NCBI GenBank assembly: GCA_041821665.1
Contig: JBGUDT010000006.1
Span: 6,249-70,248 of the forward strand
From: Anaerolineales bacterium
GTDB taxonomy: Bacteria > Chloroflexota > Anaerolineae > Anaerolineales > E44-bin32
Direction: 5' to 3'
DNA: 64,000 nucleotides
Below are positions 7,960 to 48,842 of this stretch, one piece after another. Made by a program: the position numbers and the translations under genes. The stretch's first letter is position 1, and each line of letters opens with the position of its first letter. Under the pieces are notes generated by a model. It had not been told where the DNA came from and did not search any database. It saw only the letters and a program-made list of their open reading frames with translations.

Positions 7960-7970
7960 GGGGGAGACAG

Positions 7971-19194: not shown

Positions 19195-19965
19195 TTGGAA
19201 AATAGAACAGGTCACTCGAATATACGATCGCTGGGGAAGGGTTCGAAGAAGATTCCCCGATACCAGCAGACGACGGAGGCGTTATCCTCGCTGCTCGATG
19301 ATATGGAACCAGGCACGTACCTGCCATCAGAGCCAACGCTCGCACGACAGATTGGTGTATCAAGAGCAACGCTTCGGGAAGCGATGCGGACATTCGAAGG
19401 TCAGGGGCGAATCGTACGCAGACAAGGAGTAGGGACCTATGTGACCGATCCACCATCGGTCATCGATAGCGGGATAGAGACACTTGAAAGCATCGAGGTC
19501 CTGGCACAGAAGATCGGTCTAGAAGTGGAAATGGGGGATCTAACGTTCGTAGATCGAGCGCCGAGCGATGAAGAGACCCGTAAATTTGACATCCCACCTT
19601 TAAAACTCGTCACCGATATCTCGAGGGTCATCATCGCAAAAAATCGGCCAGTGGCGTTCTTAATAGACACGCTTCCTAAAGATGCCGTACCCGAAGATGC
19701 CAAATCTGATCATTTCCGTGGTTCCATCCTCGACCTTTTCTTGAACGGTGGTGAACCTATCTTGCAGCACTCCATTGCTGAAGTAACCGCGGTAGCCGCC
19801 GAATCTGAGATCGCCCGACATCTGCAGATCCAACGAGGCGATGTGTTGCTCTATTTCGAATCCTGGTTGTACGCAGATTTAGGTGAAGCTGTGGATTATT
19901 CGAAAAGTTATTTTCTACCAGGGACATTTCGTTTTCACCTTGTCCGAAAAGTAGCTTCTGGTTAA
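19195..19965 (+). CDS. GntR family transcriptional regulator (HutC-type, UTRA effector domain)
   Basis: wHTH region IPRYQQTTEALSSLL...LPSEPTLARQIGVSRATLREAMRTFEGQGRIVRRQGVGTYV, plus a ~150-aa C-terminal UTRA-like domain. The TTG start is uncertain. Confidence 0.8.
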   Translation: MENRTGHSNIRSLGKGSKKIPRYQQTTEALSSLLDDMEPGTYLPSEPTLARQIGVSRATLREAMRTFEGQGRIVRRQGVGTYVTDPPSVIDSGIETLESIEVLAQKIGLEVEMGDLTFVDRAPSDEETRKFDIPPLKLVTDISRVIIAKNRPVAFLIDTLPKDAVPEDAKSDHFRGSILDLFLNGGEPILQHSIAEVTAVAAESEIARHLQIQRGDVLLYFESWLYADLGEAVDYSKSYFLPGTFRFHLVRKVASG

Positions 19966-20020: not shown

Positions 20021-20974
20021 ATGAGAAGCTTTGCAGGACGTGACATACTCTCACTGAAGGGGTTTGAGCGGGAGGAATTTTTTAGAGTGTTCGAGGCATG
20101 CGATAGGGTCGCGCCGTTCGCGCGAGACCGCCGTAATACGGACTTGTTGGCTGAAAAGACACTAGTCACCGCGTTCTATCAACCGAGCACGCGCACCCGT
20201 TTGGCGCATGAGGCGGCAATGATTCGTCTGGGTGGCCAGGTGACTGGATTCGCAGACGCCAAGATGACTCGAGCTGGAGATTACTACCAGGAGTCGATAA
20301 AGGACACCGTGAAGATGTTGGAATTTTACGGTGACGTAATTGTGATGAGGCATTTTCAGCAGGGTGCTCCCCACGAAGCGGCGAAATGGGCTTCCATCCC
20401 GATTATCAACGGGGGAGATGGCTGGGGTGAACATCCCACCCAGATTCTTACCGATTTGTATACCGTGCATCAGGAAAAGGGACGTCTCGATGGCTTGCGA
20501 TGGCTGGCTGTTGGCGATATGCGCATGCGCACAATGCACTCTCTTGCTTATGGCCTCACCCAATTCGATTGCCCGATAACGTTCGTTTCTCCGCCGGATA
20601 TGTCGCTTACCGACGAGTTTAAAGAGGACATTTCTGAGTTCAGCCTGGACTTTTCCGAAGCGGACCATGTCGAAGAGGCGATTGCAGACGCGGATGTGAT
20701 CTTGGTGGAGCCAGTTGTTCAGCCTGATTACACCAAATCCAGGGACGAACGGGGTGATGATGTTGGATTGACCCCCGCAAATTATAAAATCACCCGAGAA
20801 CTGCTGAGCACGAAAGCAAAGTCAGATGCCATATTGCTTCATTCGCTGCCACGCATGGATGAGATCCCCCCGGATGTGGATGCGACACGCTGGTCGCGAT
20901 ACTGGGAGGAAGCGTTCAATGGCGTTGTGATGCGGATGGGGCTTCTTGCGCTGGTTCTCGGCGCCATGGAATGA
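20021..20974 (+). CDS. Divergent PyrB-like carbamoyltransferase (aspartate/ornithine carbamoyltransferase superfamily), substrate unclear
   Basis: 317 aa. The carbamoyl-phosphate motifs are retained (QPSTRTRLAHE, VMRH, EHPTQILTDL, HSLPR). The position equivalent to the ATCase TR(V/I)QKER aspartate-binding motif reads LVEPVVQPDY, and the KGE(S/T) loop reads YYQES. Confidence 0.75.
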   Translation: MRSFAGRDILSLKGFEREEFFRVFEACDRVAPFARDRRNTDLLAEKTLVTAFYQPSTRTRLAHEAAMIRLGGQVTGFADAKMTRAGDYYQESIKDTVKMLEFYGDVIVMRHFQQGAPHEAAKWASIPIINGGDGWGEHPTQILTDLYTVHQEKGRLDGLRWLAVGDMRMRTMHSLAYGLTQFDCPITFVSPPDMSLTDEFKEDISEFSLDFSEADHVEEAIADADVILVEPVVQPDYTKSRDERGDDVGLTPANYKITRELLSTKAKSDAILLHSLPRMDEIPPDVDATRWSRYWEEAFNGVVMRMGLLALVLGAME

Positions 20975-20993
20975 TACTAAAGGGATTTGGGAT

Positions 20994-21064
20994 CGGGGAT
21001 TAGGGATTAGGTTCAACGACCTGATCCCTGTTCCCTAACCCCTAATCCCGCCACTATTTTTTTT
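20994..21064 (+). terminator. Candidate intrinsic terminator separating the two carbamoyltransferase genes
   Basis: An imperfect long hairpin, cggggattagggattagg ... cctaacccctaatcccg, is followed 6 nt later by a T8 run (21057-21064). Confidence 0.45.
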
Positions 21065-21083: not shown

Positions 21084-22064
21084 ATGCAAACAGATTTAAG
21101 TAGTCGCGATCTCATTGGTGATCTTGACTTCAGCAAGGAAGAGGTAGAGACCGTCCTCGAAGTTGCGCTGGATTTGAAGCGAAAAAGAGCCTTGGGTGAA
21201 CCTCATGCGTACCTGCGGGACAAGGTCCTGGCGATGCTCTTTTTCTTTTCGAGCACTCGCACGCGTGGATCCTTTGAGGCTGGCATGGCCCAATTGGGAG
21301 GGCACGCGGCTTTCATAGAATCACGCACGACCCAAATATCTCACGGAGATACAGAAAAAGAGATGGGGGAAATCTTTGGACGCTACTTCGATGGAATCGC
21401 CATTCGACATGTCGATTGGGGAATTGGAAATCGGTACCTCAATCTTGTAGCCGAAGCATCCCGGGTGCCAGTCCTAAATATGCAATGTGAGTTTTACCAT
21501 CCCCACCAAATCCTCGCTGATCTGCTCACGATTATCGAGAAGAAGGGGAGAGATTTGCGCGGGAAGAAGATGGTGGTCTCGTGGGCGTATGCTTCCTCAT
21601 ATCTAAAACCAATATCGGTTCCTCAATCACTGATCCTGCAAATGCCGAGATTCGGGTTGGATGTCGTATTAGCGCACCCCCCTGAGTTTAAGCTCATGCC
21701 TGAAATCATGGATCAAGCAAAAGAGCAGGCCAAGAAATTCAAGACTGGTTTCGAAGTCGTAGATGACATGAAGGCTGCCGTGAAGGATGCCGATGTGGTG
21801 TATGCAAAATCATGGGGTCCGCTGCTCACGACGACGGATCCAGATGAGGGTAAGGAAATACAGGATCGCTATCAGGATTGGATCGCGGACGAGGCTAAGA
21901 TGAAATTGGCAAAAGACGATGCAATCTACATGCACCCCTTACCGGCAGATCGAAACATCGAAGTGACGGATGGCGTCATCGATGGCCCGCAAAGCGTCGT
22001 GTTTGATGAAGCAGAAAACCGTCTTCACGTCCAAAAAGCCGTGATGGCGCTCACAATGCGATAA
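21084..22064 (+). CDS. YgeW-like carbamoyltransferase
   Basis: 326 aa with an AAGGAGG RBS. It has SSTRTRGSFE, IAIRHVDWGIGNRYL, NMQCEFYHPHQILADL, VVSWAYASSYLKPISVPQS..RFGLDVVLAHP, DADVVYAKSWGP and HPLPADR. The WAYxxSYxKPxSVPQ and KSW(G/A)P blocks match my recollection of E. coli YgeW rather than OTC (which has DxxxSMG). Confidence 0.75.
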   Translation: MQTDLSSRDLIGDLDFSKEEVETVLEVALDLKRKRALGEPHAYLRDKVLAMLFFFSSTRTRGSFEAGMAQLGGHAAFIESRTTQISHGDTEKEMGEIFGRYFDGIAIRHVDWGIGNRYLNLVAEASRVPVLNMQCEFYHPHQILADLLTIIEKKGRDLRGKKMVVSWAYASSYLKPISVPQSLILQMPRFGLDVVLAHPPEFKLMPEIMDQAKEQAKKFKTGFEVVDDMKAAVKDADVVYAKSWGPLLTTTDPDEGKEIQDRYQDWIADEAKMKLAKDDAIYMHPLPADRNIEVTDGVIDGPQSVVFDEAENRLHVQKAVMALTMR

Positions 22065-22078: not shown

Positions 22079-23038
22079 ATGTCAGAGAAAAAAGCCAAGA
22101 AGGTAGCAGTGGTAGCCGTGGGAGGAAACTCCCTTATTGTTGATAAGGCTCATCAGACCATCCCCGATCAATATGCCGCCACGAGTGAGTCGATGAAGCA
22201 TATTGCCGGCATGATCGAGTCTGGATGGGATGTCGTCATCACGCATGGTAATGGTCCTCAAGTGGGGTTCATCTTGCGGAGGGCAGAACTGGCTCTTAAT
22301 GAACTTCACCCTGTACCGTTGGACTATTGTGGAGCAGATACGCAGGGCGCGATCGGGTACATGTTCCAACGTGCACTTTACAATGAATTCAAGCTGCGCG
22401 GGTTAGATAAACAAGCGGCGACTGTGGTTACGCAGGTGCTTGTAGATCGAGAAGATCCAGCTTTTACAAATCCAACCAAGCCGATCGGGTCGTTCATGGA
22501 TGAGACGACCGCGACAGAACGAAGCCAAGCCGATGAATGGGTCGTCGTCGAGGATGCTGGACGGGGCTGGCGAAGAGTTGTACCCTCGCCTCAACCGATC
22601 CGGATCATCCAGGTCGATGCGATCAAAGCGCTCATCGACCGCGGATTTACGGTAGTCGGAGTTGGTGGAGGTGGCATTCCCGTAATCGAGGATGCGGAAG
22701 GGAACCTGGTCGGCGTAGAAGCGGTTATTGATAAGGATTTTGCCTCCGCTCTCCTGGCAAACAGCATCGGAGCGGATTTGCTGCTCATAACGACGGCTGT
22801 AGAGAAGGTCGCCTTGAATTTCAATAAACCTGATCAGCAGTGGTTGGACCATATGACTCTCCCCGAAGCCAAGGGTTATCTTGAAGAGGGTCATTTTGCC
22901 AAAGGCAGCATGGAGCCTAAAATGAAGGCCGTCGTTCAATTCCTTGAGGCTGGAGGCACAGAAGCCCTGATCACCGATCCAAAAAATATCGAACGTGCGA
23001 TTGCGGGTGAAAGCGGAACACGGATTACTAAGGAATAA
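22079..23038 (+). CDS. arcC: Carbamate kinase
   Basis: 319 aa. Contains VAVVAVGGNSL, VVITHGNGPQVG, DYCGADTQGAIGY and GVGGGGIPV. It starts 14 nt downstream of the YgeW-like gene. Confidence 0.92.
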   Translation: MSEKKAKKVAVVAVGGNSLIVDKAHQTIPDQYAATSESMKHIAGMIESGWDVVITHGNGPQVGFILRRAELALNELHPVPLDYCGADTQGAIGYMFQRALYNEFKLRGLDKQAATVVTQVLVDREDPAFTNPTKPIGSFMDETTATERSQADEWVVVEDAGRGWRRVVPSPQPIRIIQVDAIKALIDRGFTVVGVGGGGIPVIEDAEGNLVGVEAVIDKDFASALLANSIGADLLLITTAVEKVALNFNKPDQQWLDHMTLPEAKGYLEEGHFAKGSMEPKMKAVVQFLEAGGTEALITDPKNIERAIAGESGTRITKE

Positions 23039-23144: not shown

Positions 23145-24407
23145 ATGTATCGTAACAAGTTTTGGCTTGTATTCGGCTTGCTCGTCATCATGGCCATGGT
23201 GCTTGCGGCTTGTGGTGGCACCGCACCAGCAGGTGAAGAACCCGCTGGAGAGGAACCAGCAGCCGAGGAACCCGTTGCAGAAGAACCCGCAGAGGAAGTA
23301 GGCGGTTTCGAGATCCCTGCGATCGAAGAGGGGATGTTCAATGTGGGCATGGTGCTCATCGGTCCACATGACGATGGCGGCTGGTCACAGGCTCACTTCG
23401 AAGGGCTGGAGTACATCGACGAAAACGTCCCCAATACGCACGTTGCCTATATCGAGAACGTGCCCGAGGGTGCTGACTCGGAGCAGATTTTCCGCAGCCT
23501 CTCACGAAAAGGGTTTGATTTGATCTTAGGGACGTCCTTCGGTTACATGGATCCCATGGAGATCGTCGCAAGCGAGTTCCCGGACACAATGTTCATCCAT
23601 CTTACTGGTATCAAATCCAACATGGAGAACTTCGGTAATCTGATGGGCGCGATGGAGAACATGAAGTACATGGGTGGGATGCTTGCAGGAGCCCGTGCTC
23701 AGATGGATGGGAATCCTAAGCTGGGCTATATGGCCACATTCCCCATCCCTGAGGAAATCCGTCTCGGCAACGCCATTGCGCTTGGGATGAAAGAAACATG
23801 CCCTGAGTGCACGATGGATGTGCGTTGGATCAACACCTGGCACGATCCCATCATTGAGAAGGAAGCTGCTGCATCCCTCTTTGATGCTGGTGCCCAGGTT
23901 GTCTTCACTGGTGCAGACACACCCGCGGTCGCGGATGTCGCCCAGGAGAAGGGCAAGTGGGGCGTCACGTATGACTGGTATGGCTCCTGTAAAGTGGACG
24001 CCTGTCTGACTGCACCCTACTGGGTATGGGGACCCGAGTATGCACGCATCACCGAAGGCGTCATCGATGGTAGCTATGTCCCTGGCTGGGATTACTTCGA
24101 TGGTGAAACCGGCGCGCTCGGTTTATACGGCTTCATGGAGGGCGAGGAACTGACCCCTGGGGTCGCTGAGCTCCCAGAAGAAGTCATCCAGAAGGTTCGC
24201 GATCTGGTCGCAGCGATGCAGGCGGGCGAATTTACCCGCTTCGACGTTTTCTCCGGACCGATCTATGACAACCAGGGCAACCTGGTCGTCCCTGAAGGCG
24301 AAGCTCTGGAACAAATCGATCTGGACGCATTCCCCGAGTTCGGATTGGATTGCGAGTACTGCATGAAGTGGTGGGCCGAAGGCATCACCGCAGAACTGCC
24401 CGAGTAG
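23145..24407 (+). CDS. BMP-family (PnrA-like) ABC substrate-binding lipoprotein, probable purine/nucleoside binding
   Basis: Lipobox VLAACGG, then a Glu/Pro-rich linker, then the BMP fold start VGMVLIGPHDDGGWSQAHFEGL. It is followed by its cognate ATPase and two permeases. Confidence 0.85.
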   Translation: MYRNKFWLVFGLLVIMAMVLAACGGTAPAGEEPAGEEPAAEEPVAEEPAEEVGGFEIPAIEEGMFNVGMVLIGPHDDGGWSQAHFEGLEYIDENVPNTHVAYIENVPEGADSEQIFRSLSRKGFDLILGTSFGYMDPMEIVASEFPDTMFIHLTGIKSNMENFGNLMGAMENMKYMGGMLAGARAQMDGNPKLGYMATFPIPEEIRLGNAIALGMKETCPECTMDVRWINTWHDPIIEKEAAASLFDAGAQVVFTGADTPAVADVAQEKGKWGVTYDWYGSCKVDACLTAPYWVWGPEYARITEGVIDGSYVPGWDYFDGETGALGLYGFMEGEELTPGVAELPEEVIQKVRDLVAAMQAGEFTRFDVFSGPIYDNQGNLVVPEGEALEQIDLDAFPEFGLDCEYCMKWWAEGITAELPE

Positions 24408-24500
24408 TCAACGAAAACGTTGATCACACTGGGTCGGCGCTCATCAACGAGCGCCGACCCTTCATCAAGAAGAAGATTTGTAGGGCAATCGAGGCTTGCG

Positions 24501-26072
24501 ATGGATGATCAAAACATTGCTGTTGAAATGCGTGGGATCACCAAGGAATTCCCCGGTGTATTGGCGGCTGAGGATGTCGATTTCACGTTGAAGCGAGGCG
24601 AAATCCATGCGCTCCTCGGTGAGAACGGTGCAGGAAAAAGCACGCTTATGAATGTGCTTACCGGGCTATACATGCCCGAGAGAGGGACCATACGCGTGTA
24701 TGGTAAACAGGTTGATATCCGATCCCCAAGTGATGCGATTAGCAACGGTATAGGTATGGTGCATCAGCACTTCATGCTTGTACCTACTCAGACCGTCACG
24801 GAAAATATCCTCCTTGGGTTGGATAAGCCAAAGTTCCGATTGAATTTATCTCATTATCATGAAGTTGTCTCTGATCTCGGAGTGCAGTATGGACTTCACG
24901 TGGACCCGAGCGCACAAATCTGGCAGATCTCTGTCGGTGAGCAGCAGCGAGTTGAAATAATTAAGGTGCTCTACAGAGGTGCAACAATCCTCATCATGGA
25001 TGAACCTACGGCCGTACTCGCACCTCAGGAGATCGAAGAATTGTTTGTCACCCTGCGTGCGATGACAGATGAAGGAAAATCCATCATATTTATCAGCCAT
25101 AAACTCGATGAAGTAATAGCGATCGCAGATCGAATAACGGTCTTACGGAAGGGAAAGGTAAGTGCGGCGAATGTGCCCTTGAAAGGAACCACCAAGCAGG
25201 AGCTTGCTAATCTGATGGTGGGGAGGGAGGTATTCTTCGATTTACAGAAGGAAAAACAATCACCCGGAGATATCGTACTGAAGGTGGAGAATCTCAAGGC
25301 GGAAAACGATAAGGGTTTAGCGGCGCTGCGAGGGCTTTCAATACAAGTGCGATCGGGGGAGATCGTTGGGCTTGCCGGGGTTGCGGGGAATGGTCAGTCA
25401 GAGCTTGCTGAAGTTATCACCGGAATGCGGGCACCTACTGGGGGGAGGGTGATCGTACATGATGAGACTTTAATCGGCGAAGGTGCTGAAACGAAAAACG
25501 TAGCCCAGAGTGTACGGAAGATCATCGATGCCCGCGTGTCCCATATCCCCGAAGACCGGACGCATGTGGGAACCGCGCCGAATTTGAGCATCACGGATAA
25601 CGCGATTATGAAAAATTATCGCATTCCCCCCATCTCTAAAAAGTGGTCGGTGGATAAAATCGAGGCGAGGCAACATGCGGAGAGTCTTAAAGATTCGTAC
25701 GATATCATCGTGCCCACCGTAGAGACCCAGGCCAGGCTCCTCTCTGGAGGGAATTTGCAGCGATTAATTCTCGCCCGTGAAATGTCGAGTGAACCAGATC
25801 TTATGATTGCCATGCAGCCAACTCGTGGCCTTGATGTTGGAGCGATTGAAGGCGTGCAGCGGCTCTTGCTTGAGCAGCGTAAAAACGGCGCCGCTATCCT
25901 TCTTGTCTCAGAAGAATTGGATGAACTCATCGCACTTTCAGATAGGGTTTATGCCATCTACGAGGGAGAGATCATGGGCGAGATGACGGACGCCGATGCA
26001 GAAACACTGGGGTTGATGATGACAGGAACCCCACTCTCGGAGATAGCGAAGGATAAGGAGGCGCAGGGATGA
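24501..26072 (+). CDS. ABC transporter ATP-binding protein, tandem ATPase domains
   Basis: Starts MDDQNIAVEMRGITKEF. Walker A GENGAGKST and GVAGNGQSEL, signatures SVGEQQRVEI and LSGGNLQRLIL, Walker B ILIMDEPT. The upstream in-frame extension to 24420 is not homologous. Confidence 0.9.
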   Translation: MDDQNIAVEMRGITKEFPGVLAAEDVDFTLKRGEIHALLGENGAGKSTLMNVLTGLYMPERGTIRVYGKQVDIRSPSDAISNGIGMVHQHFMLVPTQTVTENILLGLDKPKFRLNLSHYHEVVSDLGVQYGLHVDPSAQIWQISVGEQQRVEIIKVLYRGATILIMDEPTAVLAPQEIEELFVTLRAMTDEGKSIIFISHKLDEVIAIADRITVLRKGKVSAANVPLKGTTKQELANLMVGREVFFDLQKEKQSPGDIVLKVENLKAENDKGLAALRGLSIQVRSGEIVGLAGVAGNGQSELAEVITGMRAPTGGRVIVHDETLIGEGAETKNVAQSVRKIIDARVSHIPEDRTHVGTAPNLSITDNAIMKNYRIPPISKKWSVDKIEARQHAESLKDSYDIIVPTVETQARLLSGGNLQRLILAREMSSEPDLMIAMQPTRGLDVGAIEGVQRLLLEQRKNGAAILLVSEELDELIALSDRVYAIYEGEIMGEMTDADAETLGLMMTGTPLSEIAKDKEAQG

Positions 26073-27202
26073 CCACCTCCAGCAGCTCCACGCAAAAGAG
26101 GCGACTCAGTCTTCCAATCTCCCTACGTCTCGAGCCGCGTTTAGAACAGCCGCGATGGCTCTCCCTCGCAGTCACGCTGGGAGCCGTGATCCTTGCCCTG
26201 CTTCTCGGAGCGTTGGTACTGAAGCTTGTAGGTGGCTCACCTCTGCTCGCCTACAGATTTATGATAAAAGCCGCATTTGGCAACATCGGCGTGTTTTCCG
26301 ATACGCTGACGAAAGCAACGCCCCTCATCTTCACCGGTCTTGCGGCTGTGGTCGCTTTCCGGATGCGGTTGTGGAACATCGGTGCCGAGGGACAGTTCTA
26401 CATGGGCGCCCTGGGAGCAAGCGCAGTTGTTCTGGCGCCGCTTCTCCCGGAAGAGGCGTCGCGATGGTTGATGATCCCGGCTATGATCATTGCGGGAGCA
26501 CTTGGCGGCGCGCTGTGGGCATTCCTCCCCGGATACCTTAAGGCGAAACTCAACGTCAATGAGATTATCACCACACTAATGATGAATTACATCGCGATTT
26601 CCTTTGTAAACTACTTTGTCTTCGATGTGTGGTCCGAAGGCGGATTTCAGATGAGCCGCCAATTCCCCAAGAATGCGTGGCTGCCAAAGCTGACAGATTT
26701 AGGCTCGCAGATCACCGAATTTCGCGGCCTTACTACACATCTTGGACTAATCATCGCTTGTATCGCAGCACTCATTGTTTGGTGGATCATCTACCGAAGT
26801 CGCTGGGGTTATGAAATCCGGCTGATCGGGGATAATCCACGGGCGGCGAAGTATGCCGGCATCAATATCGCCCGCAATATCATTCTGGTCATGTTGTTAT
26901 CCGGTGCATTAGCAGGGCTCGGTGGTATGTCGGAGATCACCGGTGTCGTACACCGTCTCCAGGGTTCCATTTCCCCTGGCTATGGTTTCACCGGGATCAT
27001 CATCGCCTGGCTGGCAAAACTTAACCCACTCTTAGTTGTGCCAATTTCGGTTTTGTTTGGCGCCTTGATCCTCGCAGGAAGAGAGATCCAGCCTTCAGGT
27101 GTCCCCATGCTTCTACAAGGTATCCTTCTCGTCTGTCTGATTGGAAGTGATTTTTTGATGCGTTTCCGTGTCCGATTAATTCACCTGCAGAGGGAGGCCT
27201 GA
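26069..27202 (+). CDS. ABC transporter permease (BMP/nucleoside system)
   Basis: 377 aa with about 9-10 TM helices. It overlaps the ATPase stop by 4 nt. The conserved region is WNIGAEGQFYMGAL. Confidence 0.85.
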   Translation: MTTSSSSTQKRRLSLPISLRLEPRLEQPRWLSLAVTLGAVILALLLGALVLKLVGGSPLLAYRFMIKAAFGNIGVFSDTLTKATPLIFTGLAAVVAFRMRLWNIGAEGQFYMGALGASAVVLAPLLPEEASRWLMIPAMIIAGALGGALWAFLPGYLKAKLNVNEIITTLMMNYIAISFVNYFVFDVWSEGGFQMSRQFPKNAWLPKLTDLGSQITEFRGLTTHLGLIIACIAALIVWWIIYRSRWGYEIRLIGDNPRAAKYAGINIARNIILVMLLSGALAGLGGMSEITGVVHRLQGSISPGYGFTGIIIAWLAKLNPLLVVPISVLFGALILAGREIQPSGVPMLLQGILLVCLIGSDFLMRFRVRLIHLQREA

Positions 27203-27204
27203 TC

Positions 27205-28173
27205 ATGGATCTCGTCATAATCCTCCACGCAGGTGTCGCTTCTGGAACTGTCCTTCTCTTCGCGACGATTGGAGAAATCTTCGCTGAACGCTCAGGCATC
27301 CTCAATCTAGGCGTCGAAGGTATGATGCTCATCGGGGCCATGAGTGGATTCAGCACCGCCCTGGCGACCGGTGATCCATGGCTCGGGGTACTCGCGGCTG
27401 TAATCGCCGCCGGACTCCTGAGCCAGGTCCATGCCTTCATCTGTATCACACTTCATGGAGATCAGGTCGTCAGCGGGCTTGCGCTCACTTTCCTCGGCAC
27501 AGGACTGAGCCTGGTCTTCGGAGAAGGATTGAGCAAGGCGGGCGCGGTTTCGCTGCTTCCGAGATTGTCGATCCCGTTCTTGTCGAGTATTCCCATCCTT
27601 GGTCCGATCCTTTTCCTGGATCAGAGCATCATGGTCTACGCGGGTTACTTGCTGGTCCCTTTGGCTGGATACTATATCTATCGCACACGACCGGGGATGC
27701 ATTTGCGAGCGGTTGGAGAATTCCCGGCCGCTGCTGATGCGCTCGGGATCAATGTATATGCGCTGCGCTACTTCTATGTGTTGATAGGGGGCATGCTGGC
27801 TGGCGTAGCGGGGGCTACGATTAGCCTAGCGGTGTCTCCGGGATGGTTCAGTCACCTCACAACCTCGGGTCAGGGATGGGTTGCGATCGGGCTTGTGATC
27901 TTTGCGCAATGGGATCCGCTCCGTGCTGCCCTGGGTGCTTACTCTTTTGGCGCACTGCGCCGGTTGATCCTCGATATCCAGGGACCCAGGTTTTTGTTCG
28001 GGCTGAAAAACCCTTTCTTCTTCAATCCATATTATGGCTTTTTCCTGCAAATGCTCCCGTATGCGTTCACGATCGTAGTCCTCGTGATCGGATCTCGGGA
28101 GGCGATTCGCAAGCGGATTGGCGCACCTGCGTCGCTGGGGCTGCCATACATCCGTGGTGAGCGAGGCGCTTGA
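27205..28173 (+). CDS. ABC transporter permease (BMP/nucleoside system)
   Basis: 322 aa, polytopic. Contains ERSGILNLGVEGMMLIGA. It starts 2 nt after the previous permease gene. Confidence 0.85.
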   Translation: MDLVIILHAGVASGTVLLFATIGEIFAERSGILNLGVEGMMLIGAMSGFSTALATGDPWLGVLAAVIAAGLLSQVHAFICITLHGDQVVSGLALTFLGTGLSLVFGEGLSKAGAVSLLPRLSIPFLSSIPILGPILFLDQSIMVYAGYLLVPLAGYYIYRTRPGMHLRAVGEFPAAADALGINVYALRYFYVLIGGMLAGVAGATISLAVSPGWFSHLTTSGQGWVAIGLVIFAQWDPLRAALGAYSFGALRRLILDIQGPRFLFGLKNPFFFNPYYGFFLQMLPYAFTIVVLVIGSREAIRKRIGAPASLGLPYIRGERGA

Positions 28174-29447
28174 TGAAGGAAAAATTTACTGGATATCAGT
28201 GTTCCGTTTGCCAAGAAACATATGAACCGGGAGAGGTCGTGTATACGTGTCCCTCCGATGGGGGGAACCTGGATGTCGTGCTTGATTATGATGCGATCTG
28301 GAATACGCTTTCTCCGGAACGAATCGCTGATACCGATGATACTTCTATCTGGCGTTACCTACCGCTTCTCCCCGTCCATGACCCCGGGCATCAGGGCTCA
28401 CCGCTGCGAGACGTGGGGTGGACACCGCTCTACAAACCTGACAGGCTTGCCAAAAAATTGGGAATGAAGGACTTTTGGTTGAAGGATGATGGACGCAATC
28501 CAACCGCATCGTTTAAGGATCGTGCCAGCGCAGTTGTGATCGCAAGGGCGGAGCAGATCAAGGCTGATGTAGTCGTCACTGCCTCAACGGGAAATGCGGG
28601 TGCTGCATTAGCTGGAATGGCAGCGGCGGCAGGGGTTCCAGCCGTAATTCTTGCACCGAAGAGCGCTCCGAAAGCCAAAGTCGCTCAGCTCTTAATCTTT
28701 GGTGCGAGCGTATTCCTCGTGGATGGCACCTACGACGATGCCTTCGACCTGACGATTGAAGCCGCGGATGCTTTTGGTTGGTATTGCCGCAACACAGGCT
28801 ATAACCCTTTCACGGCAGAGGGGAAAAAGACAGCTGCATTCGAGATATGTGAACAATTGTCCAGCGCAATTAGCGCAATCGATAGCCCCACTGGTCAATG
28901 GTTATCTCCAGATGCCCTCTTCGTGTCGGTGGGGGATGGCAATATTATTTCTGGCCTGCACAAGGGTTTCAAAGATCTGCATCGACTTGGGTGGATCCCG
29001 GGTGTTCCAAGGCTTTATGGGATCCAGTCTACGGGATCGGCGGCAATCACGAATGCATACTCGACGGGCACGGAGGAAATCAAACCGGTCAGAGCCGATA
29101 CACTGGCCGATAGCATCGCGGTAGATCTGCCTCGAGATGGACTGCGCGCCTTGCGTGCCGCAACACAAACCGGAGGTGCATATCTTGCGGTTCCAGATGA
29201 ATCGATCTTGAACGCGATGCGAGATCTCGCCCGGGATGGAGGCGTTTTCGCTGAACCTGCGGGTGCGACTGCATATGCGGGTGTGATTGAAGCGGTGGAA
29301 CAGGGACTGGTTGCCCCGCAAGAACGAGTCGTAGTGATGAATACCGGCAGTGGACTTAAAGATATCGATGCGGCGATGGATGCTGCTGGGGTTGCTACAG
29401 TTATTGAGCCGAATCTGGGTGCGCTGCAAGCCGCGATAGGTAATTGA
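28170..29447 (+). CDS. Threonine-synthase-family PLP enzyme (fold type II) with N-terminal Cys-rich ribbon
   Basis: 425 aa. N-terminal YQCSVCQETYEPGEVVYTCPSDGG, PLP-lysine motif NPTASFKDRAS, and TASTGNAGAALA. There is a 4-nt overlap (ATGA) with the permease stop. Confidence 0.75.
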   Translation: MMKEKFTGYQCSVCQETYEPGEVVYTCPSDGGNLDVVLDYDAIWNTLSPERIADTDDTSIWRYLPLLPVHDPGHQGSPLRDVGWTPLYKPDRLAKKLGMKDFWLKDDGRNPTASFKDRASAVVIARAEQIKADVVVTASTGNAGAALAGMAAAAGVPAVILAPKSAPKAKVAQLLIFGASVFLVDGTYDDAFDLTIEAADAFGWYCRNTGYNPFTAEGKKTAAFEICEQLSSAISAIDSPTGQWLSPDALFVSVGDGNIISGLHKGFKDLHRLGWIPGVPRLYGIQSTGSAAITNAYSTGTEEIKPVRADTLADSIAVDLPRDGLRALRAATQTGGAYLAVPDESILNAMRDLARDGGVFAEPAGATAYAGVIEAVEQGLVAPQERVVVMNTGSGLKDIDAAMDAAGVATVIEPNLGALQAAIGN

Positions 29448-32658: not shown

Positions 32659-34080
32659 ATGCCACATAAGCTAATTCATTCGGGTACGATCATTACAGCG
32701 AGCGAAATTATCAGGGCTGATCTCCTTATTGAAGATGAAAAAATTGTAGCCATAGGATCGGACATTCCACCTGACGTTCACGAGTCGATTGATGCTGAGG
32801 GGAAATTCATCCTACCCGGAGGTGTTGATCCGCATACTCATTTGGATTTACCGATGTTTGATACGGTTTCTTCAGATGATCACTATACCGGTCATAAAGC
32901 CGCCGCTTTCGGCGGTACCACCACGGTCATAGACTTCGTTCCACAGGACTATGCCTCCCTCAAACAGGCGGTGGATGCATGGCATGAGAAAGCGGATGGA
33001 AAAGCCGCCATTGACTTTGGTTTTCACATGAACATCACACAATTGGATGATGAAATTGAAACCCAAATTCCAGATTTGATCTCCGAGGGGATCACCACCT
33101 TGAAGGTGTTTACGGCTTATAACGGTCGTCTGAGATTGCAGGATGGGGAAATCTTCCGTGTGATGCGCGTTGGGGCGGAGCACGGCATGCTCACGATGCT
33201 GCATGCCGAGAATGGTGATGTCATAGACGTTCTCACGAAGGAGGCATTGGCGGCTGGTCACACCGAGCCTGAATGGCATGCGCAAACTCGGCCCGCGTGG
33301 GGCGCAGTCGAGTCCGTCTTGCGCGGGATCGCTTTAGCGCAGCAAGCCGGCGCGCCTCTTTATGTGGTTCACCTGAACACCGCTGGGGGTTTGGAGCAAA
33401 TCCAGTACGGTCGGGCGCATGGGGTGGCTGTCATGGCGGAGACATGCCCGCAGTATTTGTTTTTCACAGAAGAACACTTAAGGAGCCCAGATGGCGCCAA
33501 GTGGATATGCTCCCCTCCGTTGCGGGGGGAAGATGACAATATAGCGTTATGGCGTGGAATTGCGGATGGCAGTATTCAGACTTTAGGTACGGATCATTGC
33601 CCCTTCTACTTTGATGGAACGACGCCGATCGAATATGAGGGGTCGCAGATCGCAATTCCCGGGAAGGAGCTAGGCGCTGATGATTTCACTAAAATTCCGA
33701 ATGGTCTTCCCGGTGTAGGTGATCGGATGCCCATCCTCTGGACGACGGGTGTAGGTGAAGGCCGGATTACGATGAATCAATTCGTCGAGCTAACGAGTAC
33801 GAACCCGGCGAAAATTTTCGGCCTATATCCGAAGAAAGGTGCGTTACTCCCGGGGTCGGATGCAGATATTGTTATCTGGGATCCCTCCCTGAAGGTCGAG
33901 TATGGTGTCGCGCACGCAAAACATCGGACGGATTACAACTTATATGAAGGTTGGGAGCTCATGGGGTTCCCAGAGAAAGTCTTTCTAAGAGGCGAGTTGA
34001 TCGTGGATGGGGGCCAATGGATGGGGAAACGTGGCCAGGGAAAGTTTATTATGCGCCGCCCCGGCGGGGAGATTTTGTAA
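32659..34080 (+). CDS. Dihydropyrimidinase / D-hydantoinase (cyclic amidohydrolase; HyuA/YgeZ-like)
   Basis: 473 aa. Contains PGGVDPHTHLDLPM, the carboxylated-Lys context GITTLKVFTAY, MLHAENGD and LGTDHCPF. Confidence 0.9.
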   Translation: MPHKLIHSGTIITASEIIRADLLIEDEKIVAIGSDIPPDVHESIDAEGKFILPGGVDPHTHLDLPMFDTVSSDDHYTGHKAAAFGGTTTVIDFVPQDYASLKQAVDAWHEKADGKAAIDFGFHMNITQLDDEIETQIPDLISEGITTLKVFTAYNGRLRLQDGEIFRVMRVGAEHGMLTMLHAENGDVIDVLTKEALAAGHTEPEWHAQTRPAWGAVESVLRGIALAQQAGAPLYVVHLNTAGGLEQIQYGRAHGVAVMAETCPQYLFFTEEHLRSPDGAKWICSPPLRGEDDNIALWRGIADGSIQTLGTDHCPFYFDGTTPIEYEGSQIAIPGKELGADDFTKIPNGLPGVGDRMPILWTTGVGEGRITMNQFVELTSTNPAKIFGLYPKKGALLPGSDADIVIWDPSLKVEYGVAHAKHRTDYNLYEGWELMGFPEKVFLRGELIVDGGQWMGKRGQGKFIMRRPGGEIL

Positions 34081-41844: not shown

Positions 41845-43206
41845 ATGGTTATGCTGATCTATAACGCCCGCGTAGTGACCTGGGGTGATACTCCGGAGAT
41901 CCTTGAAGATCACGCTGTGATTATTAAATCCGGCATGATTGATGATATCGGGACGACGGAAGCGCTCTCTAAGAAGTACAGCGGAGATACACGCCTCGAC
42001 GCACGCAACCAGCTCCTCATGCCAGGAAATATTTGTGCTCATACACATTTTTACGGCGCATTTGCACGAGGCATGGCGATCCCGGGACAACCACCGAAAG
42101 ATTTCCCTGCGATCTTGAGCAAGCTGTGGTGGCCATTGGATAAGGCGCTCACCGAAGAGGACGTGCGCTACTCCGCGTTGGTGTGTCTCGTGGATGCTAT
42201 TAAGCATGGGACGACGACGTTGGTAGACCACCACGCATCGCCGAATGCCATCACCGGTTCACTGGATGCCATTGGGAATGCTGTTGATGAATCGGGTCTT
42301 CGAGCGGTGCTGTGTTACGAAGTTACGGATCGTGATGGGAGTGAAAAGGCAAAATTCGGTATTGAGGAAAACCTGCGCTTCCTGAAGAGAATGCGTAACA
42401 ATGGCGTTGCGGGCGGTCGCTTGGCGGGGACCTTTGGTCTCCATGCCAGCCTCACGCTGTCGGATGAGACATTACAATTGTGCCGTGATCGCGCACCCGA
42501 CGACGTTGGATTTCACATCCACGTGGCAGAACATGAAGCGGATGAATATGACAGCCTGGCGAAGTCGGGTATGCGCGTTGTAGATCGACTTAATTCGTAC
42601 GACTTATTGGGGGAAAATTCGATCGTCGCGCATGCGATACATATCGATGCACGCGAAGTTGAGCTGCTTGCAGAAAGCGGCACCTGGGTGACTCACCAAC
42701 CGAGATCGAACATGAACAACGGTGTTGGCGTCGCCGAGATTGAGTCTCTGATCCGTGCGGGTGTGAGGGTTTGCCTCGGCAATGATGGATTTTCAAATGC
42801 GATGTGGGAGGAATGGAAAACCGCCTATCTCTTACACAAAGTATGGCATCGAGACCCACGCCGCATGCCGGGTGACCTGGTGGTGAAAATGGCAGTGGAG
42901 AATAATGGCGCCCTCCTGGGAAGATTCTTTCAGGATGGTCCCCTCGGTACGATCACGCCAGGCGCCTATGCAGATCTAATCCTCGTGGATTACCATGCGA
43001 CAACCCCGCTTACAGAAGGGAATCTACCATGGCATATCCTGTTTGGATTTCACGAGTCGATGGTCACATCGACGATCGTCGCTGGAACGCTGCTCATGCA
43101 CGACAAGAAATTGCTCACGTTGGATGAAGCCGAGATTACAGCACGGTCTCGCGAATTAGCGCCTGATGTTTGGGATCGTTACCAGGCATTCGTACCGGCA
43201 GATTGA
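41845..43206 (+). CDS. ssnA: SsnA-type amidohydrolase (putative aminohydrolase of selenium-dependent hydroxylase clusters)
   Basis: 453 aa. Contains LIYNARVVTWGD...MPGNICAHTHFYGAFARGM, HVAEHEADE and GNDGFS. Confidence 0.8.
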   Translation: MVMLIYNARVVTWGDTPEILEDHAVIIKSGMIDDIGTTEALSKKYSGDTRLDARNQLLMPGNICAHTHFYGAFARGMAIPGQPPKDFPAILSKLWWPLDKALTEEDVRYSALVCLVDAIKHGTTTLVDHHASPNAITGSLDAIGNAVDESGLRAVLCYEVTDRDGSEKAKFGIEENLRFLKRMRNNGVAGGRLAGTFGLHASLTLSDETLQLCRDRAPDDVGFHIHVAEHEADEYDSLAKSGMRVVDRLNSYDLLGENSIVAHAIHIDAREVELLAESGTWVTHQPRSNMNNGVGVAEIESLIRAGVRVCLGNDGFSNAMWEEWKTAYLLHKVWHRDPRRMPGDLVVKMAVENNGALLGRFFQDGPLGTITPGAYADLILVDYHATTPLTEGNLPWHILFGFHESMVTSTIVAGTLLMHDKKLLTLDEAEITARSRELAPDVWDRYQAFVPAD

Positions 43207-43227: not shown

Positions 43228-43887
43228 ATGACCGAACGTTTGATCCTCACCATCGGACTTATTGGGGGAACTGGAAACCTGGGTCCAGGTTTGGCAACAC
43301 GCTGGGCGAGCGCAGGCTATGGCGTCATCATCGGCTCTCGCAGCGAAAAAAAGGCTCAGGGGATCGCGGAAGAGCTAAATACGAAACTCGACATCGAGAG
43401 CATCCGGGGAATGAAGAACGAGGATGCTATCGAAGCAGCAGATATTTGTGTCCTGACGGTGAACCATTCTGCTCACGGGAAGACCATTGAAGTGATCAAG
43501 GATCATCTTGGAGGCAAAATCCTGGTCGACGCGACCGCAAGGGTCGATTTTCGAGATCCGGTCCCACCAGACCCTCCAGCAGCCGCCCGGCTCGCCCAGG
43601 ATGTTATCGGAGAGGCCGGCAGGGTGGTAGCTGCGTTTCAGACAGTTCCTGCCCACGCACTTCAGGAAAATATCGGCATGCCGCTTGACCTCGATGTACT
43701 CGTATGTGCGGACGATGATGAAGCCGCTGCCGAAGTCGTCAAACTGGTCAAAGGCGCGGATATGCGTGCCTATTACGCTGGGAAACTGGACAACGCTATT
43801 GTAGCGGAAGGGATGACTGCTCTACTTATCGCGATGAATAAGAAGTACGAATCCAGGACCGGGACCATTCGAATCTCGGGGTTATGA
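43228..43887 (+). CDS. npdG: NADPH-dependent F420 reductase
   Basis: 219 aa. Rossmann motif IGLIGGTGNLGPGLATRWASAGYGVIIGSR, and a C-terminal GTIRISGL typical of Fno/NpdG. Confidence 0.85.
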   Translation: MTERLILTIGLIGGTGNLGPGLATRWASAGYGVIIGSRSEKKAQGIAEELNTKLDIESIRGMKNEDAIEAADICVLTVNHSAHGKTIEVIKDHLGGKILVDATARVDFRDPVPPDPPAAARLAQDVIGEAGRVVAAFQTVPAHALQENIGMPLDLDVLVCADDDEAAAEVVKLVKGADMRAYYAGKLDNAIVAEGMTALLIAMNKKYESRTGTIRISGL

Positions 43888-44669
43888 ACGCACAGAGCGC
43901 ATCTTCACTCGTCCTTACGGCTCTTTCGGGTATTCCGGTTGTCCAACCCGGTGATGACCTGACCAAACTAACGATCACAGGACTGAGTGACTCTGGCATC
44001 GCTCTCTCACACGGCGACGTTTTGGTGTTCGCGCAGAAAATTGTATCTAAAGCTGAGGATCGTTTCGTCAATCTTGACAAAGTCACGCCATCATCTAAGG
44101 CGAAAAAGTTAGCTGATGAAACTGGCAAAGATGCGCGGCTGGTTGAAGTTATCTTACAGGAAAGTGTGCGTGTCGTACGTACTCGGGAAAATCTCATCAT
44201 TGTGGAGCATCGGTTGGGCTTTGTGTGCGCCAATGCTGGCGTGGACCATTCGAATGTCGCCTCTCCAAGTGGTCAGCCAGGGGAATGGGTCTTGCTCCTC
44301 CCAGAAAATCCTGACGAATCGGCTCAACGCTTGTGGAAAGAAATCCAGGACAGCACGGGTGCAAACATCGGTGTATTGATTATCGACTCGCATGGGCGCG
44401 CCTGGAGACTTGGGACCGTGGGGGTTGCGATTGGAATCGCTGGTTTCCCTGCATTGTTGGATATGCGAGGCAAGCCGGACCTCTACGGAGACACTCTCAT
44501 GGTTACGCAAGTGGGTCTCGCGGATGAGGTGGCTGCTGGGGCTTCAGCACTTATGGGTCAGGCTGATGAAGGTCGCCCAATTGTGCATGTGTGCGGACTC
44601 CCGTATGAGCTGCGTGAAGGCAACTTACGTGAACTGATTCGACCGAAAGACGAAGACCTGTTTCGATAG
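43884..44669 (+). CDS. cofE: Coenzyme F420-0:L-glutamate ligase
   Basis: 261 aa. Contains PGDDL, VFAQKIVSKAEDR, GFVCANAGVDHSNV and IIDSHGRAWRLGTVGVAIG. 4-nt overlap with npdG. Confidence 0.9.
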   Translation: MNAQSASSLVLTALSGIPVVQPGDDLTKLTITGLSDSGIALSHGDVLVFAQKIVSKAEDRFVNLDKVTPSSKAKKLADETGKDARLVEVILQESVRVVRTRENLIIVEHRLGFVCANAGVDHSNVASPSGQPGEWVLLLPENPDESAQRLWKEIQDSTGANIGVLIIDSHGRAWRLGTVGVAIGIAGFPALLDMRGKPDLYGDTLMVTQVGLADEVAAGASALMGQADEGRPIVHVCGLPYELREGNLRELIRPKDEDLFR

Positions 44670-44690
44670 GTTAATGTGCAAAGGTACCGT

Positions 44691-45089
44691 ATGGAACTTA
44701 TTCCCAACTCTCACCTAGATCTTCTCCAGGACGACCGAAAAGCCATAGCCATACTTTCGACGGTTATGGCGGATGGCAGCCCCCAATCCACACCCGTATG
44801 GTTTGACACTGACGATGGTTTGATACGGGTGAATACCGCCCATGGGCGTGTGAAAGACAATAACATGACCCTTCGACCGCAGGTGGCCGTGGTCATACTT
44901 GATCCAGAGTCGATATATCGCTATGTTCAGATCCGAGGTCTCGTTGTGAAATCATCGGAAGATGGCGCTCGAGCGCATATTGATTTACTGGCGAAGAAGT
45001 ATCTCGGACAACGGACTTACGAAAACTACGATGGAGAGACGCGTGTGATGTATTTCATCAAACCCATCTCCGTCAGCGTGATGGGATGA
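44691..45089 (+). CDS. PPOX-class (pyridoxamine-5'-phosphate-oxidase fold) probable F420-dependent enzyme
   Basis: About 132 aa. Split-barrel signature ILSTVMADGSPQSTPVWFDTDDGLIRVNTAHGRVKDNNM. The start could be GTG44676. Confidence 0.75.
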   Translation: MELIPNSHLDLLQDDRKAIAILSTVMADGSPQSTPVWFDTDDGLIRVNTAHGRVKDNNMTLRPQVAVVILDPESIYRYVQIRGLVVKSSEDGARAHIDLLAKKYLGQRTYENYDGETRVMYFIKPISVSVMG

Positions 45090-45700
45090 TGGACTCAAAC
45101 AAAACATTCTCTGAAGTCGTTGTTGGAAGACGGTCGATAAGGGTATTCAAGGATACGCCCGTACCCCGGCACGCCCTGGAGTCAGCGCTAACCTACGCTA
45201 CGTTTGCGCCTTCGGCACACAACCGTCAGCCATGGCGATTTGCCGTAATCACCGACAAAGAACAGAAAGTCAGTCTGGCGAATTCCATGGGGCAGAGGCT
45301 GAAGCGAGAACGCGTACAGGATGGCGATGACCAAACGGTGATCGAAAAGGATTTAGCCCAATCCTTCACAATGTTGACAAAAGCGGGTGCGATCATACTA
45401 ATTTGTCTCACCATGGAGGATATGGATTCTTACCCGGATGCTCCTCGGAATCTCCATGAACTGCATTTGGCCATTCAGAGCGTGGCCATGGCAGGTCAGA
45501 ATCTGCTGCTCGGTTTGCAGGCTGAAGGCCTTGGAGCTTGTTGGATGTGTGCACCGCTCTTCGCCCCAGAAGAAGTTGCAGCCTGTTTCGATCTGCCTAC
45601 ATCATGGGAACCGCAGGGGCTCATCATCGTTGGATATCCACTTAAGCCGGCGTTGAAAAAGGACCATAAATCCACCGAGGAATTAATTAAGTGGCTTTGA
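45086..45700 (+). CDS. Nitroreductase-fold protein, stand-alone equivalent of the FbiB C-terminal (dehydro-F420-0 reductase) domain
   Basis: 204 aa. Contains RRSIRVFKDTPVPRHALESALTYATFAPSAHNRQPWRFAVI and GACWMCAP. It lies between cofE/PPOX and cofD with 4-nt and 10-nt overlaps. Confidence 0.7.
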   Translation: MMDSNKTFSEVVVGRRSIRVFKDTPVPRHALESALTYATFAPSAHNRQPWRFAVITDKEQKVSLANSMGQRLKRERVQDGDDQTVIEKDLAQSFTMLTKAGAIILICLTMEDMDSYPDAPRNLHELHLAIQSVAMAGQNLLLGLQAEGLGACWMCAPLFAPEEVAACFDLPTSWEPQGLIIVGYPLKPALKKDHKSTEELIKWL

Positions 45701-48817: not shown

Positions 48818-48842
48818 GGAGAGCATAATTCATGAGGTCACT

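Follow-up and report, generated by a model that had tools for sequence, protein, structure and literature searches.

Why should a gene named for aspartate carbamoyltransferase (ATCase) lie among genes of purine catabolism, beside a second transcarbamylase and a carbamate kinase? The question is raised by 64,000 nucleotides (nt) from the metagenome-assembled genome of an Anaerolineales bacterium (Chloroflexota; contig JBGUDT010000006.1), a 64-kb stretch that was analyzed whole and is referred to here as the window. The gene in question is the following:

20021..20974, + strand: pseudo-ATCase (PyrB-like carbamoyltransferase), 317 amino acids, from the list of open reading frames, Pfam and NCBIfam

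We propose, with confidence that is about evenly balanced, that its product is a catalytically competent pseudo-ATCase that runs in the phosphorolytic direction and acts on a ureido group of 2,3-diureidopropionate (DUPA) in the reductive urate, or 2,8-dioxopurine, pathway. The observed residue pattern of the active site, the conservation of that pattern, the linkage of the gene and its pathway context carry this proposal. The public name of the gene is misleading, and the gene is widely misannotated.

An ATCase fold without the ATCase aspartate site

What kind of protein does the gene encode? The reading frame opens with ATG, 8 nt downstream of a GGAG ribosome-binding site, and Pfam recognizes both halves of the aspartate/ornithine carbamoyltransferase fold (OTCace_N, 5.5e-41; OTCace, 3.3e-23). 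The AlphaFold2 model (pLDDT 94.7, pTM 0.93) finds its top structural match in the PDB in the ATCase of Pyrococcus abyssi bound to N-phosphonacetyl-L-aspartate (PALA) (1ml4; template modelling (TM) scores 0.88/0.91). Model confidence drops at residues 81-90 and 231-250 alone, which are both specificity loops (pLDDT 69-74 over 231-250). The model supports the fold, while the site assignments below come from alignments.

Residues were mapped in two ways: HMMER aligned the protein to 1ml4, and MAFFT aligned it with E. coli PyrB and 95 full-length cluster representatives. Conservation was read from 84 orthologues: 80 from GTDB species, two cluster representatives, the window protein itself and A1SH59 of Nocardioides. 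When GTDB species genomes were scanned by pattern, at least 568 stretches turned out to encode a relative; the best 80 of these matches, picked by similarity to the PyrB-like protein, are 84-97% identical to it and come almost entirely from Chloroflexota. They are the related loci to which all locus counts below refer. The segments that matter are these:

20186..20197, + strand: S56-T57-R58-T59, phosphate-binding motif of the carbamoyl-phosphate site (E. coli S52-T55), kept in both alignments
20267..20296, + strand: T83-R-A-G-D-Y-Y-Q-E-S92, replacement of the 80s loop, both alignments
20432..20443, + strand: H138-P-T-Q141, carbamoyl-binding motif (E. coli H134-Q137), kept in both alignments
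20516..20539, + strand: D166-M-R-M-R170-T-M-H173, with R170 equivalent to E. coli Arg167, the alpha-carboxylate ligand, kept
20708..20734, + strand: E230-P-V-V-Q-P-D-Y-T238, in place of the ATCase segment T-R229-x-Q231-x-E-R of the beta-carboxylate site
20840..20854, + strand: H274-S-L-P-R278, HxLP motif in which Ser replaces the ATCase Pro (HPLPR), both alignments

The carbamoyl-phosphate site is intact. STRT, Arg110, HPTQ and HSLP are all in place and are invariant across 58 diverse homologues, with R110-H111 (MRH) corresponding to R105-H106 of E. coli. Since this site is common to all transcarbamylases, it has no power to discriminate a PyrB. In ATCase, Arg229 and Gln231 anchor the beta-carboxylate of aspartate and Arg167 and Lys84 position its alpha-carboxylate, and the RxQxER motif is present in all known ATCases (PMC4581275). 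The window protein keeps the Arg167 equivalent, in a GDMRMRTMH segment one residue shorter than that of E. coli ATCase. T228-R229-V-Q231-K-E-R234 of E. coli, on the other hand, has become E230-P231-V-V233-Q-P-D236, which removes RxQxER altogether, and the 80s loop S80-L-G-K83-K84-G-E has become R84-A-G-D-Y88-Y89-Q-E, with Arg84 for Ser80 and Tyr88-Tyr89 for Lys83-Lys84. Gln54 (in FYQPSTRT) stands where the ATCase signature FxExSTRT has Glu50, and Glu230, Asp236 and Asp87 have been gained. An initial annotation, made by eye, had already described the carbamoyl-phosphate motifs as retained, TR(V/I)QKER as replaced and the K84 loop as YYQES. The HMMER and MAFFT alignments bear it out: they agree on STRT, MRH, HPTQ and HSLPR, both give EPVVQPDY with no equivalent of Arg229 or Gln231, and they set Y88-Y89 opposite K83-K84.

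Has the site decayed, or has it been rebuilt? In the 84 orthologues the replacement motifs are for the most part invariant, and their other residues are at least 95% conserved, the exception being Tyr88, a position occupied by Phe in 78 of the 84. The conserved motifs read D-A-K-M-T-R-A-G-D-[F/Y]-Y-Q-E-S, G-D-M-R-M-R-T-M-H-S, E-P-V-V-Q-[P/A]-D-Y-T and L-H-S-L-P-R-M-D-E, and the EPVV replacement of RxQ is also seen for A1SH59 in the alignment of Barba et al. Because the replaced motifs are invariant or nearly so, the site has been re-specified and has not decayed. Conservation of the 80s- and 240s-loop motifs, actinobacterial orthologue included, indicates selection on a new binding site.

Could the protein be the organism's genuine PyrB, with an unusual aspartate site? 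NCBI and JGI records label it "aspartate carbamoyltransferase [Anaerolineales bacterium]", its nearest solved structures are ATCases, and it passes the NCBIfam ATCase equivalog TIGR00670. That pass is a bare one, however (242.0 bits against a cutoff of 236.95), and NF002032 is failed (214 bits against 263). With the P. abyssi (1ml4) and E. coli enzymes, the protein shares the fold (TM 0.88-0.91), 34-39% identity, the carbamoyl-phosphate site and the Arg167 equivalent, but the ATCase hallmarks Arg229, Gln231, Lys84, Glu50 and Arg234 are all missing, as is Lys83, HSLP stands for HPLP, and the context is catabolic, with linkage to a catabolic carbamate kinase. Neither pyrI nor pyrC lies near the gene, and no pyr gene was found in the window or in the 80 related loci. 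Pseudo-ATCases are moreover known to occur alongside authentic ATCases in the same organisms (Barba et al., PMC4016543). On this evidence a genuine PyrB is barely credible. Across the at least 568 stretches of GTDB species genomes that encode this family, the name aspartate carbamoyltransferase is applied systematically, so that metabolic reconstructions of Anaerolineae and their relatives will count a pyrB that is none.

Orthology to a described pseudo-ATCase

Does the protein represent a new family? In 2013, Barba et al. (PMC4016543) introduced the term pseudo-ATCases for ATCase paralogues that have STRT and HPTQ and no RxQ. Their "subgroup 2" comprised one protein, A1SH59 of Nocardioides sp. 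JS614, for which no function was proposed and whose gene adjoins a ygeW homologue, xdhABC and hyuA. Using the A1SH59 sequence from the supplementary alignment of that paper, we found 64% identity to the window protein over 308 amino acids. Neighbor-joining (NJ) analysis placed the window protein, two representatives at 71-72% identity (P0121 and P0122) and A1SH59 together in 99 of 100 bootstraps, apart from authentic ATCases. The Nocardioides protein carries TRAG(D)FYQES, GDMRMRTMHS, MEPVVQADYT and LHSLPRMDE; like the window protein it keeps STRT and HPTQ, has HSLP and lacks RxQ, and its gene too lies near a ygeW homologue, xdh genes and hyuA. It differs in its actinobacterial host, in having MRS in place of MRH after Arg105 and in the absence of Asp87. 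By these sequence comparisons the window protein is an orthologue of A1SH59 and a member of a described subgroup, not of a new family. The sole known member of 2013 now has counterparts in at least 568 GTDB stretches, and the subgroup can now be assigned to a pathway solved in 2025.

The initial annotation had inferred a transcarbamylase of novel specificity, probably acting catabolically on a purine-derived ureido acid. Its core stands, in that a non-aspartate, catabolic role on such an acid is backed by the intact carbamoyl-phosphate site, the replaced motifs, the conserved linkage and the reductive urate cluster described below; its novelty does not, because the kind of enzyme had been described by Barba et al. 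Among the substrates that it suggested were oxalurate, ureidoglycolate and carbamoyl-beta-alanine, a field that the 2025 papers narrow to the ureido groups of DUPA.

How far does the assignment reach? A broad set of representatives has a T-R-[A/S]-G 80s loop and no RxQ. All pseudo-ATCases in which Ser80 is changed to Arg and Lys84 is lost were considered as a single clade, which was not supported: they form a basal grade in NJ trees and were monophyletic in 0 of 60 bootstraps. As there is no supported clade and the contexts differ, the assignment is limited to the A1SH59-type subfamily. One relative (P0126, 47% identical, Logan SRR29199365) has the same T-R-A-G-D 80s loop in a context that looks biosynthetic rather than purine-catabolic, its neighbours being an HMGL-like/IPMS-type enzyme, an aminotransferase and LuxR/SARP-type regulators. 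Another (P0131, 45% identical; TRAGDYYAES, GTTTPSY, HPLPR) lies near a carbamate kinase 78% identical to that of the window, in locus L082 (positions 1480-2433 and 3055-3564) and also in L083, which suggests a second, different pseudo-ATCase/carbamate kinase catabolic module in related organisms. Both lie outside urate clusters and are therefore of no use for inferring the substrate of the window protein. The motif rows in Table 1 of PMC4016543 disagree with the authors' own tree and alignment (Additional files 5-6), in which the marine group has HPLA, Rubrobacter HTLP with GCS and Nocardioides HSLP with PVV. Given this inconsistency, our classification rests on their sequences and not on the table.

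A reductive urate cluster around the gene

What surrounds the PyrB-like gene? Its immediate neighbours, all on the same strand, are:

15950-17329, + strand: 8-oxoguanine deaminase-like amidohydrolase (NF006055, 672 bits against 532)
17369-19159, + strand: adenine deaminase, a purine-base deaminase-type amidohydrolase (TIGR01178, 507 against 472.5)
19195..19965, + strand: regulator of the GntR/HutC type carrying a UTRA effector domain; the PyrB-like gene follows directly
21084..22064, + strand: partner carbamoyltransferase of the ornithine/acetylornithine transcarbamylase (OTC/AOTC)/YgeW branch, 326 amino acids (STRTR, IRH, HPHQ, HPLP)
22079..23038, + strand: catabolic carbamate kinase of the ArcC/YqeA type (TIGR00746, 371.6 against a cutoff of 358.25)
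23145..28173, + strand: BMP/PnrA-family ABC transporter (binding protein, ATPase, two permeases)
28170..29447, + strand: threonine-synthase-like pyridoxal phosphate (PLP) enzyme, weakly similar to YgeX (29% over 173 amino acids)

This is the arrangement that the initial annotation had reported, with GntR upstream, a YgeW-like transferase and carbamate kinase downstream, and no pyrI or pyrC. The OTC-like partner falls under every NCBIfam cutoff, is 34% identical to E. coli YgeW and is about equally distant from the structures of OTCase, AOTCase and YgeW. The kinase is 48% identical to E. coli YqeA, and the threonine-synthase-like protein is a candidate stand-in for the diaminopropionate ammonia-lyase YgeX.

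These names recall a pathway established for E. coli and Clostridium in 2025. It takes urate to 2,8-dioxopurine and then to its dihydro form, after which SsnA yields ureidomethylhydantoin and HyuA yields DUPA. One of the two ureido groups of DUPA is phosphorolysed by YgeW, with YqeA making ATP from the carbamoyl phosphate, the other is taken by the M20 hydrolase YgeY, and YgeX converts 2,3-diaminopropionate to pyruvate. E. coli YgeW and YqeA together yield ATP from DUPA (10.1101/2025.04.24.650524). For Chloroflexota, an F420 "luciferase-family" reductase has been proposed as the dioxopurine reductase, in place of YgfK (PMC12507026). The window holds the following genes that bear on this pathway:

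32659..34080, + strand: D-hydantoinase, HyuA-like (TIGR02033, 544 against 393; 40% identical to E. coli HyuA)
37989-41696, and 54831-56249 plus 58513-60735, + strand: two further xanthine dehydrogenase (XDH) sets
41845..43206, + strand: SsnA amidohydrolase, a marker of the reductive urate pathway (NF005540, 519 against 444; 34% identical to E. coli SsnA)
43228..48274, + strand: F420 block of Fno-like, CofE, nitroreductase-type, CofD and CofC proteins and an F420-dependent LLM oxidoreductase
47273-48274, + strand: the F420-dependent LLM oxidoreductase of that block
48756..52615, + strand: XdhD/YgfM-like molybdenum hydroxylase, with the XdhD-like enzyme at 49622-52615 (best match in the window to E. 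coli XdhD, 36% identical)

With SsnA, HyuA, an XdhD-like enzyme, an F420-dependent LLM oxidoreductase, carbamate kinase, YqeB and YqeC encoded on one strand, the window is a Chloroflexota version of the pathway described in PMC12507026. No homologue of YgeY was found in the 64-kb window, and the only match to YgeX there is the weak one noted above. Genes for uricase, 5-hydroxyisourate hydrolase, allantoinase and allantoate or ureidoglycolate enzymes were likewise not found in the window. The 2025 papers and commentary on the reductive urate pathway make no mention of a PyrB-like enzyme.

Nearly all of positions 15950-62880 forms one same-strand purine-catabolic supercluster. It comprises the two deaminase-type amidohydrolases, the regulator, both transcarbamylases, the carbamate kinase, the ABC transporter, two PLP enzymes, HyuA, SsnA, three XDH-family sets and molybdenum-cofactor maturation genes (XdhC, YqeB and a YqeC-MocA fusion). 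The F420 genes and LLM oxidoreductase within it fit the reductase that PMC12507026 only hypothesised for Chloroflexota.

Does the enzyme run anabolically instead, carbamoylating an amine, for a modified metabolite for example, with carbamoyl phosphate made by the kinase? The transcarbamylase equilibrium does lie toward carbamoylation, and the 47%-identical relative with Arg at position 80 sits in a seemingly biosynthetic cluster. Against this, the surrounding 45 kb is wholly catabolic or uptake-related, the kinase fits catabolic ArcC/YqeA models, and the counterpart module of E. coli yields ATP. We consider an anabolic role very unlikely.

Linkage in related genomes

Is the neighbourhood conserved? 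We compared 10 kb on either side of each of the 80 matches, with the following results:

72 of 80 loci: OTC/YgeW-like transcarbamylase adjoining the PyrB-like gene
64 of 80 loci: GntR regulator upstream of the PyrB-like gene
62 of 80 loci: carbamate kinase near the PyrB-like gene
42 of 80 loci: adenine deaminase-type amidohydrolase near the PyrB-like gene
40 of 80 loci: 8-oxoguanine deaminase-type amidohydrolase near the PyrB-like gene
36 of 80 loci: threonine-synthase-like PLP enzyme near the PyrB-like gene
28 of 80 loci: BMP-type ABC transporter near the PyrB-like gene

In most loci 2-125 nt, and often 2-50 nt, separate the two transcarbamylase genes. Larger gaps were considered as sites of extra pathway genes and discarded, as the inserts look, from their sequences alone, like small selfish genes. 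The threonine-synthase-like gene directly follows the carbamate kinase in many loci, and in one (L053) the PyrB-like gene lies directly among YgeY, SsnA, XDH and HyuA genes. The operons of 18 of the 80 loci encode a YgeY-like M20 hydrolase, 36-41% identical to the E. coli enzyme, mostly directly upstream of the PyrB-like gene. A further locus with a 71%-identical orthologue (L085, positions 1-4058) encodes an adenine-deaminase-like protein, the pseudo-ATCase, a YgeY-like M20 hydrolase and the OTC-like protein in that order, placing the hydrolase between the two transcarbamylases. Given these operons, a role for the PyrB-like protein as a general substitute for YgeY was rejected.

Across the 80 loci (L001-L080), median identity is 85.5% for the PyrB-like and 81% for the OTC-like protein. 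The operon neighbours lie lower, at 64% (carbamate kinase), 65-66% (deaminases) and 61% (PLP enzyme), in a ranking partly biased by the choice of loci by similarity to the PyrB-like protein. The pair evolves unusually slowly for catabolic enzymes across several labelled Chloroflexota groups.

Do the two proteins then form an obligate pair or hetero-complex with a single YgeW-equivalent activity, leaving the second ureido group to hydrolysis by YgeY? Such a partnership would suit their adjacency, often with 2-50 nt between them, in 72 of 80 loci, their identity far above that of the operon neighbours, the same pairing in Nocardioides, the YgeY genes in 18 loci and the fact that transcarbamylase active sites span subunit interfaces. 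However, both proteins have complete catalytic motifs, so neither looks like a dead scaffold, and the only characterised pseudo-ATCase, discussed below, is active alone. The family review (PMC4581275) mentions no hetero-oligomeric transcarbamylase, the conservation ranking carries the bias just mentioned, and no PyrB-like/OTC-like fusion was found among 150 representatives. This single-activity arrangement seems distinctly improbable to us.

Three fusion candidates were set aside. P0258 and P0266 (653 amino acids) keep a canonical ATCase motif (MTRYQKERM or MTRKQRERL), and their long C-terminal extension shows no match to the OTC-like protein; P0127 looks like a read-through or chimera.

Proposed role in DUPA breakdown

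How might the enzyme act? Its substrate, regiochemistry and coupling to ATP synthesis are predicted from the site, the linkage and the pathway. Phosphate would attack one ureido group of DUPA through the intact phosphate/carbamoyl-phosphate site (STRT, Arg110, HPTQ, HSLP), and the carbamoyl phosphate released would pass to the co-transcribed carbamate kinase to give ATP, NH3 and CO2. The adjacent OTC/YgeW-like paralogue would strip the other ureido group, and a PLP enzyme would convert the resulting 2,3-diaminopropionate to pyruvate. This scheme resembles the YgeW-YqeA module of E. coli and Clostridium, in which a transcarbamylase and a carbamate kinase turn a ureido group of DUPA into ATP. 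YgeW itself, however, is a 396-residue knotted enzyme of the acetylornithine/succinylornithine transcarbamylase (AOTC/SOTC) branch with extended 120s and 240s loops; the PyrB-like protein is 20% identical to E. coli YgeW and scores 29.0 and 26.8 bits on the YgeW equivalog models, whose cutoffs are 453 and 500. Where E. coli has one transcarbamylase and YgeY, the loci described here have two transcarbamylases and mostly no YgeY nearby. Ureido phosphorolysis followed by ATP formation through carbamate kinase is also found in the catabolic OTCase/ArcC and putrescine carbamoyltransferase/carbamate kinase modules of the arginine and agmatine deiminase pathways, which differ in superfamily branch, substrates and specificity loops.

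Which ureido group would be taken? Somewhat more tentatively, we suggest the N-alpha group, which is the ureido group at position 2 of DUPA or of 3-amino-2-ureidopropionate. Arg170 is kept, Arg229, Gln231, Lys84 and Arg234 have become Pro, Val, Tyr and Asp, and Glu230, Asp236 and Asp87 are new, which points to an N-alpha-carbamoyl amino acid with a side chain other than a carboxylate. A precedent fitting this reading is the ureidoglycine transcarbamylase (UGTCase) of Rubrobacter xylanophilus (Rxyl_2847, Q1AS69), the only characterised pseudo-ATCase. Active by itself, it phosphorolyses the N-alpha ureido group of allantoate, a diureido acid one carbon shorter than DUPA and its lower homologue. 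Like the window protein, it is an ATCase-branch paralogue without RxQ, has H(T/S)LP and FxQPSTRT, and is encoded next to a carbamate kinase gene within a cluster for purine degradation. That cluster, however, belongs to the oxidative uricase/allantoinase route, and the two proteins are 32% identical. In UGTCase the 80s loop is still of the Ser/Lys kind (SSSAAKEES) and GCS stands where RxQ would be; the active-site set proposed for it by Shi et al. is S102* and K106* of the 80s loop, R189, S258, K261 and T298 of H(T/S)LP. In the window protein, R84 and Y89 stand for the Ser and Lys and EPVVQ stands for PGCSAPK, the Arg and H(S)LP being common to both. Finally, as no YgeY homologue lies in the window, the second ureido-cleaving activity would otherwise be missing there.

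Several points weigh against assigning the enzyme to a ureido group of DUPA in this way. Where YgeY is present, as in L085 and 18 of the 80 loci, three candidate ureido-cleaving enzymes share two ureido groups, so the PyrB-like protein is not simply a YgeY replacement; YgeY could also be encoded elsewhere in this genome, and E. coli copes with one transcarbamylase. The 2025 studies are at odds over which ureido group YgeW attacks, a point that Percudani lists as an open question, and the division of labour can therefore not be deduced by analogy. The invariant Arg84 may assume the role of Lys84, which weakens the argument from charge. The pathway intermediate has been proposed to have the D (R) configuration, whereas the substrate of ATCase is L-aspartate, making a residue-by-residue transfer of roles uncertain.

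Might the substrate be a ureido compound outside the DUPA branch? Candidates for such a catabolic carbamoyltransferase are N-carbamoyl-beta-alanine and beta-ureidoisobutyrate (from pyrimidines, through a dihydropyrimidinase-type HyuA), allantoate or ureidoglycine, oxalurate and other N-carbamoyl amino acids. The HyuA-like protein does pass the dihydropyrimidinase/D-hydantoinase model TIGR02033, a beta-alanine transcarbamylase was predicted by Shi et al., and where YgeY is present DUPA would already have two cleaving enzymes besides the PyrB-like protein. Pseudo-ATCases with Arg at position 80 occur in quite different contexts, so specificity in this radiation appears labile. Carbamoyl-beta-alanine would, however, need the opposite of what is seen, since the alpha-carboxylate ligand Arg170 is kept and the beta-carboxylate ligands are lost. 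An allantoate or ureidoglycine substrate sits poorly with the lack of allantoinase, uricase, allantoate and ureidoglycolate genes in the window and with the low identity to UGTCase, whose Lys and GCS motif are absent here. Purine genes are linked throughout the related loci. We judge a substrate outside the DUPA branch to be unlikely.

Phosphorolysis on DUPA, our preferred reading, can be taken a step further, with the ATCase-type and OTC-type proteins as an obligate pair, possibly a hetero-complex, that phosphorolyses both ureido groups. An obligate pair of this kind is distinctly improbable. That low estimate does not extend to the weaker claim of two independent phosphorolytic steps, which is the best explanation.

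What would follow? If the pair strips both groups, each purine would give two carbamoyl phosphates, and so two ATP, against one in E. coli, a yield that Chloroflexota and some Actinobacteria would obtain when they degrade urate anaerobically. Were both decarbamoylations phosphorolytic, the substrate-level ATP of purine fermentation would be doubled for this segment, which bears on slow-growing fermenters in digesters and sediments and on the engineering of urate-lowering probiotics. The PyrB-like protein would represent a new enzyme activity, an N-alpha-carbamoyl-2,3-diaminopropionate (or DUPA) carbamoyltransferase. With an ATCase-type and an OTC-type enzyme side by side in one lineage, these loci offer a natural experiment on the regiochemistry of the YgeW step.

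Other features of the window

Between the two transcarbamylase genes lies a structure that the initial annotation had described as a terminator-like hairpin and that folding supports:

20982-21012 and 21019-21049 (arms of 31 nt), through 21064, + strand: long imperfect hairpin, terminator- or attenuator-like

Its fold energy is -48 kcal/mol (z = -4.75), and eight T residues follow at 21057-21064 after a 7-nt spacer. The hairpin is a GGGATT-rich imperfect palindrome whose sequence is unique in the window. A simple terminator scan did not call it, and an Rfam search of the window returned no matches. Intergenic length varies among the related loci, and the hairpin is not a conserved operon feature; it is local to this genome and may attenuate read-through.

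The second PLP-dependent protein of the supercluster (30450-31910, 486 amino acids) has a glycosyltransferase gene on one side and the HyuA-like gene on the other. Its resemblance to CysK is weak (78 bits, with a cutoff of 351), and its substrate could be a beta-substituted alanine, for example albizziin or diaminopropionate. A 605-residue DUF6909 protein (PF21850, 733 bits) is encoded at 56630-58447 inside the genes of one XDH-family enzyme, flanked by the FAD/Fe-S subunit (54831-56249) and the molybdopterin subunit (58513-60735). Upstream of the cluster, at 7848-10766, lies a DUF1800/DUF1501 gene pair that seems unrelated to the PyrB-like gene and its role.

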